Assembly (NCBI GenBank): GCA_016715865.1
Contig: JADJXM010000006.1
Span: forward strand, 65,486-129,485
From: Acidobacteriota bacterium
GTDB lineage: Bacteria > Acidobacteriota > Blastocatellia > RBC074
Direction of reading: 5' to 3'
DNA length: 64,000 nt
Shown: positions 5,718-51,679 of the stretch, in pieces
Numbering within the stretch: the stretch's first letter is position 1
How the letters are laid out: the number at the start of each line of letters is the position of its first letter
Translations under genes and position numbers: made by a program
Notes under the pieces: model-generated
The model's database searches: none
Told to the model about the DNA's origin: nothing
The model's input: the letters and a program-made list of their open reading frames with translations, nothing else

Positions 5718-5820
5718 GAGTTGAAAGTAGAAAGTTGAAAGTCAGAGCGCTTGAGGCCCGGGCGGGTTTCTAACCACCGCCGAATCGCGGTTCATACTTT
5801 CAACTTTTAACTTTCAACTT
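5718..5820. repeat. Hairpin element A1: arms gttgaaagtagaaagttgaaagt / actttcaacttttaactttcaac around a roughly 50-nt core
   Basis: Inverted tandem heptamers (GTTGAAA/AGTAGAA) between the lipoprotein start and the decarboxylase stop. Confidence 0.7.
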
Positions 5821-5822
5821 TA

Positions 5823-9619: not shown

Positions 9620-11377
<1,758 letters not shown>

Positions 11378-11384
11378 GATTAAG

Positions 11385-11459
<75 letters not shown>

Positions 11460-11464
11460 AATGA

Positions 11465-12471
<1,007 letters not shown>

Positions 12472-26066: not shown

Positions 26067-26161
26067 CCGTCGCACAATTCGCACAATTCGCACAATTCAG
26101 TAAATTTTGTGCGAAATAGCGAATTGTGCGAATGTGCGAATTGTGCGACGGGTTCTTAGTA
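26067..26161. repeat. Hairpin element C: (CGCACAATT)x3 arms
   Basis: ccgtcgcacaattcgcacaattcgcacaattc ... gaattgtgcgaatgtgcgaattgtgcgacgg. Confidence 0.7.
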
Positions 26162-29655: not shown

Positions 29656-30783
29656 TCATTGTCCCACGATCAAGTATTCATGTACTTCGGCACGTACAAC
29701 GTTTTGATGAGTCCCGAAATGATAGCGATGTGGTTTCTCGTACAGAGTGACTCTTTTCTTGTAACGGCTTAAAAGATCTTCTAATACATCCTTGTCAGGG
29801 AAACCGTTGGAGCTATATGAGAGAACGATAGTGCTGTTGCGGTATAGTTGAAAAAGCTTGTCAAAGGCTTCGATCGCCGTTTTTCTATAGCTGAATGGCG
29901 TATAGGGTTTTTCGATTTTCTTAACTTTTGTGCTTTCCATGATCCGAAGTCCTTGCCAATAACAAGAAAGACCTTCCAGAAAGTGATATCGCTTAACGTA
30001 GCAGTTGTCATCCGAGCGCGGCACATATGGCGGATCCAAATAGACCAGATCAACACCCTCTGGCTTTAATGTAAAAACGTCTGCTCGTTTTACTATATTC
30101 TGGCGACCATTATCGAAAACAACCCGGTTGAATGTCTCGATCTGTTCAAGAAAATGTTCTTCGATAGAAAGCTGCAGATCCCGTCGACCATCGTCGTAGC
30201 GAGAGAGATCACCCGAAACCGTGAAGACACCACGAGGCTGCTTCTTCAAGCAAGAACGTATCAGAGCAGCGCGGGCAAGGGCACGCTGATGGTCATGTTC
30301 GAGTTTATCAAGATTATTGGAAACACGGTCCAGGAACCCCAGATCTTTGGCGGTATAGAAGATTCCTTTGAATGTTTTTTGGATGAAATTGGAGCTGTTT
30401 TTTGAAGGTGTGAGCAACTTGTCCACTGCCGGACCAGCGAGCTGATACTTACTATTTTCAACTGTCGCCATTGCCAAAACTGTTGGGAAATTCAGAAAGT
30501 CTGAAGCGATTACACTCTTGCCCATCGCCTTCAGCAAATAGGCTACACATCCGCTTCCGACAAACGGATCCGCAGCTGTCTCGAAGTCGAGAGTGCGAAA
30601 GACGCCATGAATCCATGGTAAAAGTCTGCGTTTGGAACCCATGTAGCGCAGTTCCGGATACTCCAAGACCAGCCTTGGAAGAGGGGTATCAATGATCTCT
30701 TCATGATTGATGGCGCCACTCACCTGTTCATTGGATTGCCGCGTAAAAAGAGGCATTTGAATTCCTGATCTTGGAGACGCCAT
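29656..30783 (-). CDS. Dam-family (D12 class) N6-adenine DNA methyltransferase
   Basis: Motif I RYMGSKRRLLPWI and motif IV DPPY. Confidence 0.8.
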   Translation of the reverse strand: MASPRSGIQMPLFTRQSNEQVSGAINHEEIIDTPLPRLVLEYPELRYMGSKRRLLPWIHGVFRTLDFETAADPFVGSGCVAYLLKAMGKSVIASDFLNFPTVLAMATVENSKYQLAGPAVDKLLTPSKNSSNFIQKTFKGIFYTAKDLGFLDRVSNNLDKLEHDHQRALARAALIRSCLKKQPRGVFTVSGDLSRYDDGRRDLQLSIEEHFLEQIETFNRVVFDNGRQNIVKRADVFTLKPEGVDLVYLDPPYVPRSDDNCYVKRYHFLEGLSCYWQGLRIMESTKVKKIEKPYTPFSYRKTAIEAFDKLFQLYRNSTIVLSYSSNGFPDKDVLEDLLSRYKKRVTLYEKPHRYHFGTHQNVVRAEVHEYLIVGQ

Positions 30784-30853: not shown

Positions 30854-33187
30854 TCAAAACTCTATCCTTCCGCCGATGATCGGGATCAGAGTCCGTTCGC
30901 GCAGGAAACCGGCCGTCCCGCTTCCCAGCCGGTAATTGACATCGACGACATTGGTGTATTTCGTCAGATTGAAGATATCGACGTAAGGCGAGAAGGACCA
31001 GCGCCTGAAATCGAAGCGGCGCTCGACGCGCAGATCGAGTTGGAAGAAGTTCGGCAACCTCAGAGCATTCCTGTCTTCAGGCCGCAACAGTTCAAACAGT
31101 GTCACTCGCGGAGGCTCGTTGAAAATCACAGGCGTCAGATTCGAGTAGGCGAGACCGCTCGCGACGCGCATTTTTGAAGCGAGCAACCATTGTCCCCAGA
31201 GCTTGATGCGGGTCAGGCCGATCAGCGTCAACTGGTGCGGGCGAGCGACTTCTGAAGGAAAAGTGAACCCTTCGGGTGTGAAACGCCTGCGGGCGCGCGT
31301 CCAGGAGTACCCCGCCTGACCGGCGAATCTTCCAGACAATGCCTTCTGAGCGGTGACTTCGACGCCCTGGACATCGGCTTCCCCAGTGTTAAGGTACCGC
31401 GGCGAGGTGCGTGTCGGTTGGACCAGCAGATCGTAGTAACTCTTACGATAAGCCTCGACTGTGACACGCACATCTTCACGCGCCAGCCATTCGATTCCGC
31501 CGATAGCGTGGACCGAGCGCTGCGCCTTGAGCGTGCGATTTTCCGGAGTTAACGCGAGCAGAAAGCTGGGAGGCGGCTGGCGATAGAGGCCCGCGGCCAG
31601 ATTGAGGGCGAAACGCGAACTGAGCCGGATGCGCGCACTTGCTCGCGGGCTGATCAGAGTCTGCCGCGTGACGCCGTACCTGTCGAAGCGCACGCCGGGC
31701 GAGATCGACAGTCGACTTGTCGCCTGCCATGTCGCCTGGGCATAGGCATAACCATTGACGGTCGAATCGATGCGCAAATGATGTTCGCGCGTCGGAGCTC
31801 GATACTCTTCGCCGATAGGGCTGTATCCGACGGGCGAACGCTCGAATGTATAAATGTCGCCCTGCTGGACGATCAGTGCTCCACCAGCCGCCAGATTGAC
31901 GCGCGGACTAAATGCGGTCGTCAACTCCTGCTTGATGCCGAACTGCGATTCGCGCAGGTCACGCCGGCGCTGCAGCGTGGTCCGATCGATGCGCAGAAAG
32001 CTGCCGTCATTGTGTTCGCCGATGCCCCAGGCTGTAATGTTCGAAAGCGTGCGATCTCCGAGAGTCGAGCTTAGCGTGGCGCCGGCGATGTAACGCTTGC
32101 CGGTACGTTCGCTGATCAACTGATCACGACGCGAAGCTCTTTGCGCGGTCTCGAACGGAACGGTGATGCGCTCGGCGAAGGTCATCGCCGTCAGTGACAA
32201 TTTGTGCCGCGGAGCCAGATCGACGTCTATCTTATTAATAACATCCAGATTGCGCGGCTTGCCGATATCGCCCAGATCGAAAAGCTCGAAGGCCAGGTCG
32301 ATGTAGCTGCGCCGGATTGAGACAAACCAGCCGGCGCGCGGCCCGAGCGGGATTTCGACGCTCCCGCCGGCTACGCCAGAATCCGCAAAGAGACTTCCCT
32401 GCACCCTGTCGCGCGTCGCTTTGCGAATGGTGATGTCGAGTGCGGAAGACATCCGATCGCCATAGCGCGCGCCGAATCCTCCGGCTGAAAATTCCAGGCG
32501 GTCAAAGACGTCCGGCGCCAGCAGCGCCGCTCGCCCTCCGCGACCGTTGTCGTATTGATCGGAAAAATAGGTGAAGTCGCCGATGGGGATGTTGTCGATG
32601 AAGGTCAGATTTTCGCTGGGGAAACCACCGCGCACCAGCAGGTCGCCAAACTGCGCCGAGTCGGCGGTCACTCCGGGCAAAGACGAGATGGCGCGCAGAG
32701 CATCGCCTCCCGTGCCGGGCAGCGATCGCAGCTCGGCACGTCGCAGCGTCACGTTGCTGATCGGCTGATCCGTCGTTTGAACATAGTATCCGCTGCTGAC
32801 CGTCATCTCTTCGGAGACCTGCAGGTCCAATCGCACATCGTAGATCGAAGTGTAACGGGCCGTAACCGTGATCAGTCCGATGATGAGTGGAGCATAGCCC
32901 CTGGCCTTCACTCGCGCCGCCCAGGTTCCGGGCGGAAGCTCCAGCCTGTAGCGACCTTCCTCATCGGTGACGGCTTCAGTCCGGTCAGCGATGGCGATTA
33001 CAGCGCCGGCGACCGGCTGTCCGCTGACGCGTTCAGTGACCTGACCGGTCACGGTTCCAGATTGAGGCGAAGGGTTCTGAGCGCCCGCGCTGGCGACTGC
33101 CGCGAGCATCACCATCGCGACCAGACAGGACTTTACCGGGAGATCCATAATCTGACTGCATACTCTGCCAACTAAATTTTCTGACAT
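30854..33187 (-). CDS. TonB-dependent receptor with N-terminal carboxypeptidase-regulatory-like domain
   Basis: Signal peptide, a CarboxypepD_reg-like Ig domain (VTGQVTERVSGQPVAGAVIA), a plug, and a C-terminal barrel ending in aromatic F. Confidence 0.8.
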   Translation of the reverse strand: MSENLVGRVCSQIMDLPVKSCLVAMVMLAAVASAGAQNPSPQSGTVTGQVTERVSGQPVAGAVIAIADRTEAVTDEEGRYRLELPPGTWAARVKARGYAPLIIGLITVTARYTSIYDVRLDLQVSEEMTVSSGYYVQTTDQPISNVTLRRAELRSLPGTGGDALRAISSLPGVTADSAQFGDLLVRGGFPSENLTFIDNIPIGDFTYFSDQYDNGRGGRAALLAPDVFDRLEFSAGGFGARYGDRMSSALDITIRKATRDRVQGSLFADSGVAGGSVEIPLGPRAGWFVSIRRSYIDLAFELFDLGDIGKPRNLDVINKIDVDLAPRHKLSLTAMTFAERITVPFETAQRASRRDQLISERTGKRYIAGATLSSTLGDRTLSNITAWGIGEHNDGSFLRIDRTTLQRRRDLRESQFGIKQELTTAFSPRVNLAAGGALIVQQGDIYTFERSPVGYSPIGEEYRAPTREHHLRIDSTVNGYAYAQATWQATSRLSISPGVRFDRYGVTRQTLISPRASARIRLSSRFALNLAAGLYRQPPPSFLLALTPENRTLKAQRSVHAIGGIEWLAREDVRVTVEAYRKSYYDLLVQPTRTSPRYLNTGEADVQGVEVTAQKALSGRFAGQAGYSWTRARRRFTPEGFTFPSEVARPHQLTLIGLTRIKLWGQWLLASKMRVASGLAYSNLTPVIFNEPPRVTLFELLRPEDRNALRLPNFFQLDLRVERRFDFRRWSFSPYVDIFNLTKYTNVVDVNYRLGSGTAGFLRERTLIPIIGGRIEF

Positions 33188-33205
33188 TTAGATCTGGAAG
33201 AAATT

Positions 33206-33366
33206 AATCGCAAAGCCGCAAAGCAGGCAAAGATTGCTGTAATATCATGCCGCCAAAGGGCAAAGATTTATGGTGATATTAATATCCGAATTATTGCCCA
33301 CTTGGATATAATTCGAAAACTGATCTTCCCTCTATATCTTTGCCCCTTTGCGGCCTCTGCGATTAA
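33206..33366. repeat. Element K1: GCAAAG-repeat inverted arms around a conserved, roughly 95-nt core with an internal hairpin
   Basis: About 88% identical to 48712..48920. The core is ggtgatattaatatccgaattattgcccacttggatataattcgaaaactgatcttccctctatatctttgcccctttgcggcc. Confidence 0.7.
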
Positions 33367-33452
33367 CTTTTTTCCAGTCTTGAATACAAGAAAATTTAGT
33401 TAACAAAGTGTTAAAGTTCTTTGAAATCACAGGAAGATTTCTTGCCATTGAT

Positions 33453-35345
33453 TCAATTGATTCTGATGCTGACAGTATTCGCCTGCTGACCGTCGACGGT
33501 CAATCCGACATCGACCACGCCGCGATTGATAAGAGCCCTGTCGAGGCGGATGTTGGCCTGATCCAGACCGATGAGAGTCGGATGCGCCCCCAGAAACGTC
33601 ACCTGCATCGAAGACCCGCCAACCATGGCGGAAACATTGGCCAGCGCACTGCGGTAGCGGAATCCGGTTCCGAACAGAATCAGAAAAACCTGATCCGTTT
33701 CAGGGCCAAGGTCGATCGGAAGAGCTACGAATTGATTGCTCGCCTGATCGAAAGTGATAACCGGTTCGAAGCTCTGCGAACCATCGGAACGGGTTCTCTG
33801 CACGACAGCGGCGGCGACTCCGCGGCCGTTGGCATTTGCGCTGAAGACCGACGGCACGACGGTCGCGATATTGATGGCGCTGCTGAAAGCGGCGCCGAAA
33901 ACTATGTCATTCCTGAAATTTATGGTCGCATTGCCAGGGGCTGTCCCGGGGGGAATCTGGAAGTTGACCTGATCGGGCGAAACGAAGAAGAGTGAAGCCG
34001 GACGATTGCTCCCGAGCGCATCGATGACGCTGACGCTTGCGCCGGCGAGCGTCGTCGGCAAAGCCTGATTTGCCGGCGCTGACTGCGTGGTCGAAGCCAG
34101 TCCGGAACCAAAGGCCGCGACGATCGATTCGGCGGCAACCTGCGCTCCGGCATAATTGGCGGCCGAAACGACCGCTGCCGTCCCCGGCAGGGCCAGCCGG
34201 TAGATTCCGCCGTTGATATCGATGACGTAGATTTCTCCAGACTCATCCTCGGCGAACGACGAGATCAGGAAACTGGTGTCGCGGAGCAAACTCATCGTGT
34301 TGTTGTTCCAGAGAAATATCTCTCCGGTGCAGTAATCGGCGAAAACATAGCTGCCGGCGGGCAGTGTCCCTTTCGTACCGCGATAGACATACCCTCCGGT
34401 GACTGAGCAGCGATTGTTCGAATGGTCGTATTCGATCAGCGGGGCGATGAATCCCGGAGCCGTGCATGACGCCGGGCCGAGGCCGGTGCAGCGAGTCCCT
34501 TCGAGCACTCGCCAGCCATAATTGCCGCCCAGTGTGATCAGACTGACCTCTTCGCGCTGGCCCTGTCCGACATCGCCGGCATAGAGCTGCCCCGTTTGCC
34601 GGTCGAACGACCAGCGCCAGGGATTTCGAACGCCGACCGCGTAAATCTCATCAGCTCCCGGCGTCGATCCGAAGAACGGATTGGTCGACGGCGAAGAATA
34701 CGGCACATTTCCATTCGGCGTATCGACATCGATACGCAGCATCTTGCCCAGCAGGTTATTGATGTCCTGCGAACGGTCGCCTGGATCGTTGGCCGAACCG
34801 CCGTCTCCCATGCCGATGTACAGAAACCCGTCAGCCCCAAAATCGATCATCCCCCCGTTGTGATTCGAAAACGGCTGGGCGATCGTCAGAATGATCTTTT
34901 CTTCAATATCGGCCACATTCGGATTCGCAACCGAGGCCTTGAATTCAGAGATGACAGTTGCGCCGTCGCTGCGACGTGTGTAGTTGACGATAAAACGCCG
35001 GTTGTTCGCGAACTGAGGATGAAATGCGAGACCGAGCAGGCCGCGCTCACCGCCAGAGCCGACCTTCGTAACGATATCGAGAAAAGGTGTCGGCAGCGGA
35101 GCCGCCGCACCGGGTAACATGACCAGAATCCTGCCCGGTTGTTCGATGATGAAGAACCGGTTGCTGCCGTCGTGCGCGCTGGTTGCGAAGACAGGCGAAT
35201 TCAATCCTTGCGCCACAGGAATAAGCTGAATCGTCGCCTGGGCTGAAACAGTCCGCTCAACACCATCCGGTGAAAAACTGAAGAGAGACGACAACCCACC
35301 GATCAATAAAAATAGAATGAATATACGAATGAATAATCTGTTCAT
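33453..35345 (-). CDS. PQQ-dependent soluble sugar (glucose/sorbosone) dehydrogenase with C-terminal Solibacter-type (TIGR03437-like) domain
   Basis: Signal peptide [17 protein letters not shown] and the GSDH beta-propeller motif [30 protein letters not shown]. The C-terminal roughly 200 aa is an Ig-like tail. Confidence 0.65.
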
Positions 35346-35352
35346 GGTCCCC

Positions 35353-35432
35353 CCCTGGGAGCGCAGGCTTCCAGCCTGCTTTTTTTGGCTAATAGTGAAA
35401 TTCAAGCAGGCTGGAAGCCTGCGCTCCCAGGT
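35353..35432 (-). terminator. Perfect 28-bp inverted repeat (hairpin) immediately downstream of selB
   Basis: cctgggagcgcaggcttccagcctgctt / aagcaggctggaagcctgcgctcccagg with a 24-nt loop that contains a T7 run. Confidence 0.4.
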
Positions 35433-35487
35433 TCCTGGAAACATTACAAGATTGAGGGGCGTTAAATTGCAGGGGAGGAAGATCAGT

Positions 35488-37407
<1,920 letters not shown>

Positions 37408-47852: not shown

Positions 47853-47962
47853 CCCACCCTTCCCTTTCTTACTCTTGAGTATTACTATTTCCCATACCTG
47901 CAATGCTTTGCAGGCGTCAATTCAACTATTGGATTAAGAGTCATCAAACCAAGGAGTGCCCC

Positions 47963-48577
47963 ATGCGAAGCTTGTTGTTTGTGACATTGCTTCTTCTTCT
48001 CTGCGTACCCGTATTCGCGCAGGATACTCCGAGAGTGGAACTATTCACCGGATACTCACTGCTCAGAACTGACGATCAGACGATCGACCTGAATCAGTTC
48101 GGGCTGACTGGCGCCGCAACACGTGATGCGACAACGCTTCACGGATGGAATGCAACACTCGGTCTCAATTTTTCAGGCATCTTCGGCATTGTGGTTGATG
48201 GTGCCGGTGGATATGGAAAGATCGATTATTCACTTTCAGCCCCGGGTTTGTCGGGGTCAGTCGGGATCAAGACCCGACTGCATACGATCATGATCGGCCC
48301 GCAAATCAACCTGCGCGGCGAAGAGATTCTATTCTTCGTCCGGGCGATGGGCGGCGTAGCCCGAATCGATCAGTCGTTCGATGTCGCAGGCCAGAAAGTC
48401 TCATTCCACGAGACCGCCTTTGCCGGGGCGGCCGGCCTCGGCCTCGATTTCAAATTGTCGGATTCCGTCTGGCTGCGGCTGCTGCAGGGTGATTACGTTG
48501 TCACGCGGTTCAAAGAGGGTGTTTCAGATAAAAATCAGAGGAGCATTCGAATTTCAACCGGCCTGGTCTTTCGTTGA
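47963..48577 (+). CDS. Outer-membrane beta-barrel protein (OmpA-like transmembrane domain/porin family)
   Basis: Signal peptide, alternating amphipathic strands and a C-terminal ...STGLVFR. Confidence 0.5.
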
Positions 48578-48711
48578 TCGTGGCCCGTCCATACTCGGAA
48601 AAATAATTGGCGCGAGCAGCTCACGCTTCTGCTCGCGCCTTAATTTTTGGAGAATATCGATGCACCTGTATAGACGATGTGAGATCGTTTTTTTTGCCCG
48701 AATAGAAAAAA

Positions 48712-48920
48712 TAATCGCAAATCGCAAAGGAGCAAAGGAGCAAAGGAGCAAAGATTTTAAATCGCAGGCCGCAAAGCGGCAAAGAATTTTTGGTGATATG
48801 AATATCCGGATTATTGCCGACCGGATATAATTCGAACACTGATCTTCCTTATATATCTTTGCCGCTTTGCGGCCTTTGCGATTTAAAATCTTTGCTCCTT
48901 TGTGACCTTTGCGATTAAAT
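48712..48920. repeat. Element K2: second copy of the conserved core with (GCAAAGGA)x3 arms
   Basis: See K1. The arms aatcgcaaaggagcaaaggagcaaaggagcaaagattttaaatcgca... are mirrored by ...tgcgatttaaaatctttgctcctttgtgacctttgcgatt. Confidence 0.7.
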
Positions 48921-48965: not shown

Positions 48966-51335
48966 TCATTTGAAAATAAACCGCAGCCGGCCGCCGGCCA
49001 TACGCGGATGGCCGAAGTGAGTCCCCTCGAATGGATTGCCGAAATTGTAAGCGAAGGGCCGATCAGCAAGGTTCTGAAGATCGAGCTGCGCGCTGACGGT
49101 GACTCGATCCCTTGAGATCAGTTCGATTCCGGCCGAAAGATCGAAGACATACCATGGTTTGACGCGCGCGCGATCGAAATCGACCAGTTCTGCTCCGCGC
49201 TCCTCCATGAGATCTTCCAGCCTGTCCTCTTCGACCTCGAGCGGGACTCCGCTTTCATATCGTCCCGAGAGAGACGCCCACCATTTGCCGCGCTGATAGC
49301 TGAGTCCGAAGGCTCCGACGTTGCGCTGATCGTGATCGGGCAAAAACTTCGTTCCGGGCCCGATCTCGATCGCTTCATCCGTCAGGAACAATCCGCCGTT
49401 GATCGGTCCCGTCTGCAGTATTCTGCCGTTGGTGTAGCTGATAAACGACGACCATCCTTTGTATATCGGTATATCCAGCCGGACATCCAGACCGCGCGCA
49501 AACCCTTTTGCGACGCTGTTCGGGAAAGCTATGGTCGTGCCAAAAAAGACATTAGGATCGTCGAAATTGCGAAAATTGCGGTGCCAGAATGCAACATCCA
49601 GCCTGACCAATCCGGCTAAATCCTGGGCAAATCCGACTTCATAAGCCGAGACGCTTTCGGGATGAATTTCGGCCCCTCCGGGATTGCCTTCGGCGAAGGG
49701 TGAGAGCTGCCGCGCCTCAACCGAGTTGGAAAGCAGCAGATTCTCGACCTGGGGTGGCATAAACATCCGGTTGAAAGAGGCGCGCAGAACCGTGTGAGTC
49801 CGCACAATGGTCCAGGCTGCGCCGATGCGCGGGCTGAGCTGATCGTCTGTGACCGGCATCGTCGATCGATCGTATCGGAGACCGGCATTCACCCTCAGAT
49901 TTTTGGTCGGATTGAACGTATCCTGAATATACCAGGAGAACCATGTCCCGTTCTGACTGCCGCGAAAGATGAAAGGATTTTCCGGGGTGAATGCAAGAGC
50001 CGCATCGCTGACTTCCAGCTCGTCGGCCTCCTCCGGATCGGTCACGGCGAAGGTGAAGAATTCACGCGGAGTCACGCGCGCGGCCTCGATACCTGATTTG
50101 ATCGTGTGCGAGCCCTTGCCGATGGTCAGGCCGGCCAGAAATCCCTGCCGGGCATGCCGTCGATCCTGTGTCGCATTGATCGGCGTATCGAACTCGCTGC
50201 CGATCAATTTCGACTCATAAGATCGACGAAACCATGCGACATTGCTGACCGCGTTCGCCGACCAGACATGCTGCCAGCTGACAGATTGACCCTGATCGCG
50301 CAGCCGCTGCTCCTGATCCTGACCGGCGAGCTGCTGTTTCAGCCGATTTGTGACATGAAAATCGGCGCCGTTGGCGGCAATGTCGATCAGCAGGATGTCC
50401 TTCTCAGTCGGGTGCCAGTCTGCGCGGGCATTGAGCTTGCCCGTCCCTCCGCGGTTGTTGAAATTCCCCAGATCGATCGGATCCAGAAACCGGTCCGAAA
50501 TGCTGGTCGATCCATTGAAATAGACCCCGAAGGTGCGATGCAACTTTCCGCCGGCATTGGCCGCCAGTTCGCGGGCATGGAAACTTCCCATCCCCAGACT
50601 GGCTCCTCCGGCGAATGACTGGTCGATGCCCGATTGCGGCTGTATCTGAACCACAGCGCCCGACCTGCCGCCGAACTCCGCAGGGATATTGCCTGTAATT
50701 ATGTTGAGCGAGCGGATCATTTCGGTGTCGAAACTGCCGGCCGAGACCGCGTCGATCCGGTCAACCGTTGGAATGCCATCGATGACATAAAGTATCCCGT
50801 CATCGACCCCGCGAATATGCAGTAATCCGTTGTTTTGAGTCGTAAAACCCGGCGTCGTCGCAATCAGCCGTTGCAGCGCCAGACTCTTCGTCGCTCCAGG
50901 TGCGCGACGGATGAGAGATTGGGACAATTGTGTCTGTGTGCTGGTCGAATCAGGATTGATCAGCGCCTGTTGCTCAACTGTCGTCACCTGCTCAGTGATC
51001 GCCGCAGGACTCATCCTGAATTCCACGATCCGCTCGATGTTAGAGTTGACTGCGATCTGCCTGGTTTCCGATCTGAAGCCGGCGGCATTCACCTGCAGCG
51101 AATATCCGTTAAACGTTACATTGTTGAAGACGAACTCCCCTGATTGTCCACTCAAGGTTACAAACCGATCTCCCGTCAACGGATTCAAAAGCTCGACCTG
51201 AGCGCCGGCCAGCCTGGCTCCTGACGCATCCATGACCGCACCTCGAACCGTGCCGATCTGAATCTGACCCGCTGCTTCGATCGATAAAAATATAGGAAAA
51301 AGACAGAGCATCAATCTGTAAATCCACTTATGCAT
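48966..51335 (-). CDS. TonB-dependent receptor with N-terminal carboxypeptidase-regulatory-like domain
   Basis: Signal peptide, a CarboxypepD_reg-like N-domain, a plug and a barrel whose C-terminus is ...RLRFIFK. Confidence 0.8.
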   Translation of the reverse strand: MHKWIYRLMLCLFPIFLSIEAAGQIQIGTVRGAVMDASGARLAGAQVELLNPLTGDRFVTLSGQSGEFVFNNVTFNGYSLQVNAAGFRSETRQIAVNSNIERIVEFRMSPAAITEQVTTVEQQALINPDSTSTQTQLSQSLIRRAPGATKSLALQRLIATTPGFTTQNNGLLHIRGVDDGILYVIDGIPTVDRIDAVSAGSFDTEMIRSLNIITGNIPAEFGGRSGAVVQIQPQSGIDQSFAGGASLGMGSFHARELAANAGGKLHRTFGVYFNGSTSISDRFLDPIDLGNFNNRGGTGKLNARADWHPTEKDILLIDIAANGADFHVTNRLKQQLAGQDQEQRLRDQGQSVSWQHVWSANAVSNVAWFRRSYESKLIGSEFDTPINATQDRRHARQGFLAGLTIGKGSHTIKSGIEAARVTPREFFTFAVTDPEEADELEVSDAALAFTPENPFIFRGSQNGTWFSWYIQDTFNPTKNLRVNAGLRYDRSTMPVTDDQLSPRIGAAWTIVRTHTVLRASFNRMFMPPQVENLLLSNSVEARQLSPFAEGNPGGAEIHPESVSAYEVGFAQDLAGLVRLDVAFWHRNFRNFDDPNVFFGTTIAFPNSVAKGFARGLDVRLDIPIYKGWSSFISYTNGRILQTGPINGGLFLTDEAIEIGPGTKFLPDHDQRNVGAFGLSYQRGKWWASLSGRYESGVPLEVEEDRLEDLMEERGAELVDFDRARVKPWYVFDLSAGIELISRDRVTVSAQLDLQNLADRPFAYNFGNPFEGTHFGHPRMAGGRLRFIFK

Positions 51336-51679
51336 TTCCAAACTCCTCGCTTAGGTCAATTTCAGCCGATCAACAATCTGCTCGGCATTTTTTTATTCGA
51401 CTCGTTGTTGATCCAGGAAATAGACGGAACGGTTATCGACAATATATCCGTTTTTCAACGGAGGGAAAAGGTTGAAGTTTCCAGAGAGAGAGAAGTGCCA
51501 GCAAGAGAGGGGAAAAAAGGACTCGGCCTCAATCCACTGAAACTGGATCTTGAACTTCTCTCCGAAACTTCTCTCGAAATTCGTGTACACTTGAACTCAT
51601 CGCGACATCAGATCGCCGCTGATTACATATGCGGAATCTGAATTGATTCCAATCTCTACCGATAATTGAGGACGCCCGA

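Follow-up and report, generated by a model that had tools for sequence, protein, structure and literature searches.

Results

A long hairpin between two convergent outer-membrane genes

We analysed a stretch of 64,000 nucleotides (hereafter the window) from an uncultured Acidobacteriota lineage (Blastocatellia; contig JADJXM010000006.1, positions 65,486 to 129,485). The proteins encoded around the elements likewise assign it to the class Blastocatellia of the Acidobacteriota. In this window two genes, coding for an outer-membrane beta-barrel protein (OMP_b-brl) and for a TonB-dependent receptor (TBDR), converge on a palindromic element, K2. An initial annotation had presented K2 as the second copy of a hairpin with a conserved core, and had likened its architecture to that of MITEs (miniature inverted-repeat transposable elements). 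We report here that K2 is MITE-like or REP-like (REP: repetitive extragenic palindromic sequence) in its behaviour, being dispersed, intergenic, insertion-polymorphic and non-coding, and that its arms follow a design also found around genes of the GxxExxY protein family. It is not a demonstrated MITE of a DDE transposon. The features of the locus, and those around the other copy in the window, K1, are collected in Table 1.

Table 1. Elements K2 and K1 and their neighbouring genes (positions in the window).
Feature	Position	Strand	Description
K2, whole palindromic element	48712..48920	.	Double-arm form, without the outer A module of the family
K2 outer left arm, B1	48713..48755	+	AATCGCAAATC + (GCAAAGGA)x3 + GCAAAGAT
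K2 inner left arm, B2	48760..48786	+	AATCGCAGGCCGCAAAGCGGCAAAGAA; family consensus TTAATCGCAAAGGCCGCAAAGGGGCAAAGAT
K2 conserved core	48787..48854	+	68 nt, hairpin loop; small internal hairpin ATATCCGG...CCGGATAT
K2 inner right arm, B2'	48855..48883	+	ATCTTTGCCGCTTTGCGGCCTTTGCGATT
K2 outer right arm, B1'	48888..48916	+	ATCTTTGCTCCTTTGTGACCTTTGCGATT
Left neighbour of K2	47903..48577	+	Outer-membrane beta-barrel protein (OMP_b-brl)
Right neighbour of K2	48966..51341	-	TBDR (CarboxypepD_reg + Plug + barrel)
K1	33160..33411	.	Near full-length copy
K1 core	33268..33335	+	87.5% identical to the K2 core
Gene downstream of K1	30854..33148	-	TBDR
Gene upstream of K1	33453..35513	-	GSDH-domain protein

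Folding of the K2 region as RNA gave a hairpin of about 210 nt whose 68-nt loop is the core common to K1. The minimum free energy was -107.3 kcal/mol for the plus strand and -105.7 kcal/mol for the minus strand. Dinucleotide shuffles averaged -49.5 +/- 4.2 kcal/mol (z about -13.8) and none of the 200 folded as well. The annotated hairpin of more than 200 nt with the core as its loop was recovered. A repeat search detected a perfect 26-nt inverted pair (48741-48766 and 48877-48902), eight more inverted pairs and direct repeats of GCAAAG units with a period of 8 nt. When the left arm (77 nt) was aligned globally with the reverse complement of the right arm (69 nt), 62 positions were complementary. 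The arms had been described as 65-nt inverted copies of three GCAAAGGA units. They are indeed inverted at these positions, but the run of three exists in the left arm only: the right arm contains two GCAAAGGA units and the variant CTTTGCTCCTTTGTGACCTTTGC, which results in a bulge of 8-9 nt. Each 65-nt arm is made of two tandem modules, B1+B2 on the left and B2'+B1' on the right, a layout shared with L128 and L129, the full-length copies described below. The CG spacer of B2' equals that of the left arm, the change having occurred on both arms with pairing kept, and B1 has likewise diverged to GGA spacers on both sides. G-U pairs in the stem are equally numerous on the two strands, giving no strand asymmetry. 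The identities of both convergent genes were also upheld. The gaps that separate K2 from them, previously given as 31-135 nt, measure 135 nt to the OMP_b-brl stop at 48577 and 46 nt to the TBDR stop at 48966. The OMP_b-brl gene has a terminator-like hairpin of its own at 48609-48640.

K2 belongs to a dispersed and modular family

K1 is built, in order, of an X-type outer arm, B1, a degenerate B2, the core, a hybrid B2'/B1' arm and a Y-type outer arm, and the similarity of its core to that of K2 bears out the description of K2 as a second copy. A scan of 185,579 representative genomes with a 21-base core pattern yielded only four further copies (L001-L004), all in one Blastocatellia metagenome-assembled genome (MAG; CAZBPH01). 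A minus-strand reading frame is open across K2, and searching a protein collection with its translation led, through two spurious open reading frame (ORF) calls, to the full-length copies L128 and L129 in ENA assemblies. These searches brought the number of known copies to eight, in at least three assemblies. A second core pattern had no match in JGI metagenomes, the core and arm patterns had none in viral contigs, and the core had none in plasmid or phage collections. The copies are always intergenic, mostly right after stop codons, at unrelated sites and in either orientation.

The full form is a composite palindrome of about 290 nt, arranged as A, B1, B2, the 68-nt core, B2', B1' and A', where the outer module A reads AATACTCTGTAAACTAAATTTTCT...CTGGAAGAAAT. 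The arm unit of the family consists of a TTAATC cap followed by three to four repeats of GCAAAG plus 2-3 nt, inverted around the non-coding core; K-type arms are of the TTAATCGCAAAG type. L128 and L129 fold at about -152 kcal/mol. The short form, B2-core-B2', stands alone in L001-L003, such forms ending in the U-rich tail GCGAUUAAUUUCUUC, and K2 corresponds to B1-B2-core-B2'-B1'. Across the family, arms range from 27 to 75 nt and elements from 140 to 290 nt. Arm changes comprise slippage of units, modules duplicated in tandem (L003, L004, L002) and, as in the hybrid right arm of K1, deletions from one repeated module to another. Mean column identity in the alignment of B2-core-B2' is 87%. K1 and K2 are 83-87% identical to each other, and the copies of the window 86-93% identical to those of other genomes. 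For the core alone the identity is 87-93%, against about 58-65% for host proteins compared between the genomes.

A sister palindrome with arms of GCCAAG units and a TTCAAC cap lies 40 nt from the K-type copy of L128 (L128 1940-2120). Its core and the K core have in common a 20-nt motif, TGTTCGAATTAT(T)ATCCA (alignment score 30; the best of 500 shuffles scored 26); this motif faintly recalls the tRNA T-arm (GGTTCGAATCC). At another locus (L077 190-330) a double K-type arm, AATCGCAGAGG... then TTGAATCGCAAAGACC..., is directly followed by the end of an IS3-family insertion sequence (IS) with its orfA, which points to K-type palindromes as sites of IS insertion, as is known for REPs.

Empty sites exist for both K2 and K1

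We compared occupied and empty sites between the window and its relatives. In the related locus L005 the TBDR is 96% identical, the same OMP gene converges on it and the flanks are about 98% identical, but no trace of K2 is present: the intergenic gap measures 171 nt, and that of the window 388 nt. K1 is missing from L130 and L131 (TBDR 82% identical), which are fully syntenic with the window over the genes for SelB, the GSDH-domain protein, the TBDR and a methyltransferase; there the gap between the GSDH and TBDR genes is 55 nt, against 304 nt in the window. A further relative, L132, also lacks an element at this site. Both elements are therefore insertion-polymorphic. The initial annotation was to be abandoned if there were neither further copies nor empty sites; there are eight copies, and empty sites for K1 and K2 alike.

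In the window K1 lies between the stop codon of the GSDH gene and the start codon of the TBDR gene at 33148, its outer end about 12 nt from this start. Since the two genes are only 55 nt apart in the syntenic relatives, the K1 site is probably an operon junction. Downstream of the TBDR gene, a D12-class methyltransferase gene (29656-30783) lies in a low-GC stretch (about 44-48% GC, roughly 24-30 kb); in the syntenic relative L130 (8438-10401) a D12-class methyltransferase gene is followed by a DpnII-type restriction gene. The GSDH-domain protein (33453-35513) and the 2259-aa protein of L004 (228-7007) have a C-terminal domain of 240 aa in common (44% identity), and both genes end just before a K-type element. 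L004 was considered as an orthologous K1 site with an inverted core and rejected, as this domain is all that the upstream genes have in common.

The ends of the elements often read TTAA-TCGC...GCGA-TTAA, and the outer ends of L128 and L129 adjoin TAA or TA. In L003, K1 and K2 the TTAA terminus is missing or has changed. Neither an autonomous IS with matching ends nor a transposase between array pairs spaced like an IS was found in the window and about 860 kb of array-bearing loci. Among candidates, an inverted array pair 5.2 kb apart (L008) was rejected as a parent IS because it encloses housekeeping genes, and other pairs 0.6-4.5 kb apart were rejected because they enclose SerC-, LeuB- or PheS-like ORFs, as judged by translation. 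The MITE-like description thus stands for the terminal inverted repeats, small size, intergenic position, absence of coding capacity and polymorphism of the elements; no matching IS was found in these loci, and no clean target-site duplication could be read.

The core occurs in both orientations

The two outer arms of the elements differ, and can be classified into an X type (...CTGRCATTTARRTCTGG...) and a Y type (...CCAGTCTTGAATACAAG...). With the core written on the plus strand, K1 and L128 are arranged as X-core-Y' and L129 as Y-core-X', while the left arm of L004 is Y-like. The left arm of L128 is 92% identical to the right arm of L129, and the right arm of L128 is 93% identical to the left arm of L129, against 77-83% for arms of the same side. 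This indicates that the core, or the whole of B2-core-B2', was inverted at least once relative to the outer arms. The loop, which had been called asymmetric and is so, is thus found in both orientations across the family. The inversion could stem from recombination between the arms, from template switching between them, or from nested insertions made in both orientations. The two orientations were observed at different loci only and never at the same locus, and so do not speak for an active switch. Wherever a copy lies between co-directional genes (four cases) its core is antisense to them, a suggestive pattern that does not reach significance (two-sided p = 0.125); L129 is among these, despite its flipped outer arms.

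Tests for a product or signal in the core

No Rfam family matched the element at gathering threshold; generic miRNA-precursor hairpin models were the only ones to score, far below their cut-off. The element contains no conserved ORF and no Pfam match: the minus-strand frame lacks a start codon and is interrupted in K1, so that we rejected it as a real peptide. Whether a GxxExxY gene could have left the core behind was also considered, the minus frame ...QCSNYIQWAIIRIF resembling ...QLLNYL...GLLINF. The idea was unsupported, no match to PDDEXK_3 being obtained even at E <= 10, and the core is consequently not a simple internal-deletion remnant of a PDDEXK_3 gene. No consistent promoter was found in the core on either strand, whether of the sigma-70 type or with the Bacteroidota TAnnTTTG motif, and an intrinsic terminator is conceivable in the short forms only. 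Neither G-U asymmetry nor orientation relative to genes revealed a strand bias that would point to a function at the RNA level.

The arms belong to a wider class of capped unit arrays

A 21-base arm pattern (CGCAAAGNCCGCAAAGNNGCAAAG), for which we estimate less than one match by chance, was present in at least 120 metagenome contigs among the matches listed, from soil, peat, freshwater, rumen and human gut. The arrays consist of three to four units with a period of 8-9 nt, preceded by TCAC, AAAC, TCTC or CAAC. An inverted partner was found downstream of 54 of 139 arrays, with loops of 12-314 nt, and the orientation of arrays relative to neighbouring genes was unbiased (38 vs 39 and 37 vs 35). 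Arrays of other units (CACAGAG, CGCAGAG, CACGAAG, GCCAAG) lie beside GCAAAG arrays or are nested in them. The arms of K1, K2 and all their relatives follow the design of this class, a short cap and three to four units of about 6-7 nt at a period of 8-9 nt. Literature searches with arm strings, on MITEs of Acidobacteria and on GxxExxY/PF13366 returned no description of these repeats, a result limited to the literature searched and no proof of novelty.

The window itself contains six palindromes made of tandem units, of which shuffled sequences contain almost none: K1, K2, three with GAAAGT(A) units and one with CGCACAAT. Two of them, with arms of four to five tandem GAAAGTA heptamers, lie at 11283-11375 and 11467-11596 on either side of a tRNA gene (11385-11458), and the same kind of GAAAGTA array occurs in the MAG locus L002 (6566-6683). 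An inverted pair of GAAAGT units (gaaagtagaaagttgaaagt ... aacttttaactttcaacttt) is located at 5723-5821. The palindrome at 26070-26148, in the low-GC stretch (about 24-30 kb), has arms of three TCGCACAAT units with a period of 9 nt and a loop of about 20 nt.

Several GxxExxY genes are bracketed by inverted unit arrays

The only small ORF that recurred beside arrays in the array-selected loci codes for a GxxExxY protein (TIGR04256 / PF13366 PDDEXK_3), which has the PD-(D/E)XK nuclease fold. PF13366 is listed as a family of unknown function with multiple horizontal transfers (PMC3424549), and no solved structure was found for it. The distance between this gene and the arrays is 9-84 nt in four array-selected loci that are independent of one another. 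The gene is bracketed by inverted arrays between TrpE and TrpG (L020 1405-1788) and between NuoF and a NuoG-like gene (L069 707-1087). At one further locus (L047 2812-3709, the same as L081 8130-8885) tandem 71-nt repeats lie on both sides of the gene, two before it and four after. Every one of these repeats contains a single GCAAAG array, and a lone inverted array ends the series, which shows that arm modules can be amplified in tandem.

As an independent test, plasmid records were searched with the GxxExxY protein alone. Inverted unit arrays bracketed five of the eight genes found: those of Bacteroides, located between radA and a gene for an FAD-dependent protein, of Sphingomonas, located between fabD and fabG-acpP, and of Bernardetia, Gemmatirosa and Prevotella. 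Each of the three others differed: a simple inverted repeat of 12-16 nt in Treponema, direct repeats in Fusobacteria and no evident flanking feature in Persicobacter. In every annotated case the GxxExxY gene is co-directional with its housekeeping neighbours and tightly fitted between them. At the trpE/trpG and nuoF/nuoG sites, as at fabD/fabG (L135 1195-1623) and at radA and the gene after it (L136 1195-1569), the array-bracketed gene fits precisely between conserved operon genes and runs in their direction. No GxxExxY gene was found between K-type arms.

Discussion

K2 as a proposed non-autonomous copy of a palindromic cassette

Taken alone, K2 is one more bacterial palindromic interspersed repeat. 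We favour, with moderate confidence, the interpretation that it is a gene-less and non-autonomous copy of a selfish palindromic cassette, of the class whose unit-array arms are associated with GxxExxY genes. According to this proposal, the arms would be cis-acting ends recognised by a protein acting in trans, the candidate being a GxxExxY-type nuclease encoded elsewhere in the genome, and we infer that K2 was mobilised by such a protein. The gene-less palindromes, K2 included, would be related to the GxxExxY cassette as REPs are to the genes of REP-associated tyrosine transposases (RAYTs), and the core may be an alternative "cargo". Once transcribed, the stem of about 57 bp could make the insert tolerable in transcription units from either strand, through processing by RNase III or as a 3' stabiliser, and the core would have flipped incidentally, when the arms recombined or served for template switching. 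A broader version is possible, and we put it forward more tentatively. It states that GCAAAG arrays and their CACAGAG, CGCAGAG, CGCGAAG and ACAAATC variants may be the ends of selfish cassettes found across phyla with GxxExxY as cargo, of which the gene-less palindromes of metagenomes, K1 and K2 would be non-autonomous forms. Such a system would be REPtron-like but built on another enzyme fold, and would insert precisely between operon genes, where a processable hairpin would make it tolerated.

Several observations weigh against our interpretation. The core has no detectable similarity to PDDEXK_3, and neither the 64-kb window nor about 60 kb of related Blastocatellia loci (about 125 kb of the lineage) contains a GxxExxY gene. 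We found no biochemical activity for any GxxExxY protein in the literature searched and know of none. About 85 nt at the K2 junction have diverged between the window and L005, leaving the boundaries inexact and no duplication readable, and the absence of K2 in L005 may be due to a deletion in this relative. More generally there is no clean target-site duplication, the terminal TTAA/TAA being palindromic and varying between copies. Only eight copies support the family, six of which were found by the core pattern, so that the invariance of the right half of the core arises partly by construction. Finally, K1 and K2 have diverged from each other as much as copies of different genomes have, which fits old copies or selection on the sequence as well as recent mobility.

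Alternative explanations

It could be argued that K2 is a structural element of the REP or ERIC type (ERIC: enterobacterial repetitive intergenic consensus), retained by the host because the hairpin itself acts as a 3' end, mRNA stabiliser, RNase III site or insulator between convergent genes. The position of the copies, always intergenic and mostly just 3' of stop codons, agrees with this, as do the arm changes of K2 that keep pairing (the CG spacer on both arms), the U-rich tail of the short forms (GCGAUUAAUUUCUUC) and a core far better conserved than host proteins. However, both neighbours of K2 already possess their own terminator-like hairpins or 3' ends, and the relative with a 96% identical TBDR lives without the element, which must be dispensable. 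A loop of 68 nt is not terminator-like, K1 is inserted in a probable operon junction, and the spread of copies to unrelated sites is left unexplained, so that we regard retention by selection as unlikely. A canonical MITE, derived by internal deletion from an IS with a DDE transposase (of the IS5 or IS630 type, for example) and moved in trans by cut-and-paste, would account for the inverted repeats at the ends, the small size, the existence of several copies and their polymorphic presence. IS5 and IS630 types duplicate TA, TAA or TTAA, and the TTAA-bearing termini, like the TAA or TA next to L128 and L129, are in keeping with such an origin. But TTAA is palindromic and lies within the inverted repeat itself, and L003, K1 and K2 either lack it or have it in altered form, so that no consistent duplication can be demonstrated. 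In the loci surveyed, no inverted array pair of IS size encloses a transposase gene; the sole transposase seen, the IS3 orfA of L077, interrupts an arm pair instead of being flanked by one, and the only gene family recurrent inside such arms is GxxExxY/PDDEXK_3 and not a DDE transposase. Arms of 8-9-nt units are also atypical as binding sites of DDE transposases. This origin therefore appears distinctly improbable.

Two further explanations concern the core, and we give them very little weight. If the core were a small structured RNA or a protein-binding site which the arms merely flank, its strong conservation would be expected; its internal hairpin has one two-sided change in K1 that preserves pairing, and the sister palindrome with GCCAAG arms has the same 20-nt motif at a score that none of the shuffles reached. 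Against this, there is no Rfam match and no promoter or terminator pair, other substitutions (in L001 and K1) break the small hairpin, and the comparison involves eight sequences only, partly found via the core itself; we consider it very unlikely. The idea of an invertible switch (inverton), in which a directional signal in the core would turn the adjoining outer-membrane genes on or off, seems the most improbable of all. It is suggested by the presence of the core in both orientations relative to asymmetric outer arms, by the position of K1 12 nt upstream of a TBDR gene and by the antisense core in all four copies between co-directional genes, L129 included. Yet the four cases are too few for significance, the two orientations never occupy one locus, the core lacks a sigma-70-like promoter on either strand and no recombinase was seen nearby. 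Besides, an invertible segment of 68 bp is very short for recombinase synapsis, and flipped loops are known to arise at hairpins as a side effect of mutation, as in the minute inversions of chloroplast DNA.

Comparison with known repeats and significance

REPs, 20-40 nt long, are marked by a GTAG or CGTC tag (PMC3733652). The cassette class proposed here resembles REPs, bacterial interspersed mosaic elements (BIMEs) and their RAYT genes (REPtrons) in combining many gene-less short intergenic palindromes with a small gene flanked by the same repeats in inverted orientation. As with REPs and BIMEs, copies lie mostly after genes and seem also to be targets of IS insertion (compare L077). In contrast, RAYTs are IS200-like Y1 transposases, whereas the gene described here has the PD-(D/E)XK fold. 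The arms, for their part, string together units of 8-9 nt behind a TTCAC, AAC or TTAATC cap and lack the GTAG/CGTC tag, and K-type copies carry a conserved 68-nt loop.

Correia elements, or Neisseria miniature insertion sequences (NEMIS), are MITEs of 100-160 nt with terminal inverted repeats of 26-30 nt around a conserved core. Like the K family, they form subtypes through end variants and internal deletions, lie in or next to transcription units and give long RNA hairpins; unlike it, they have a TA duplication, an integration host factor site and outward promoters, none of which could be demonstrated for K-type copies. The ERIC sequences or intergenic repeat units (IRUs) of enterobacteria measure about 127 nt and are imperfectly palindromic around a conserved centre. 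They too are intergenic, present in either orientation and variable in size by internal insertions and deletions, but there is no sequence similarity and their arms are not arrays of tandem units; we know of no gene associated with them. Short tandemly repeated repetitive (STRR) sequences of cyanobacteria likewise are intergenic arrays of units on the scale of 7 nt, to be compared also with the GAAAGTA heptamer arrays of the window. They have been described as tandem arrays, and not as capped inverted pairs around a core or gene. The intervening sequences of 23S rRNA genes in Leptospira and Coxiella consist of a small ORF bounded by inverted repeats in a transcribed region, RNase III excising the stem, and offer a model for the tolerance of K1 in an operon junction. 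They encode a four-helix bundle and have another location, and a processing of K1 is hypothetical. Finally, a loop found in both orientations between inverted arms is known from minute hairpin-loop inversions in chloroplasts and from the flip/flop of parvovirus inverted terminal repeats. Those are mutational or replicative events, whereas in the K family one state is found in some copies of the dispersed repeat and the other state in others.

K1 and K2 provide two clean cases of presence/absence in an uncultured Acidobacteriota lineage, and the K family is a hairpin repeat with a flipping loop. Through its arms, K2 is tied to abundant intergenic palindromes found across phyla, for which we found no description, and which are linked to a common protein family, GxxExxY/PDDEXK_3. 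If the link between GxxExxY genes and palindromes is causal, a role would be assigned to this protein family. Much of the repeat "dark matter" of metagenomes from soil, gut and aquatic habitats would then be explained, and the contig breaks and spurious ORF calls at such sites would be accounted for.
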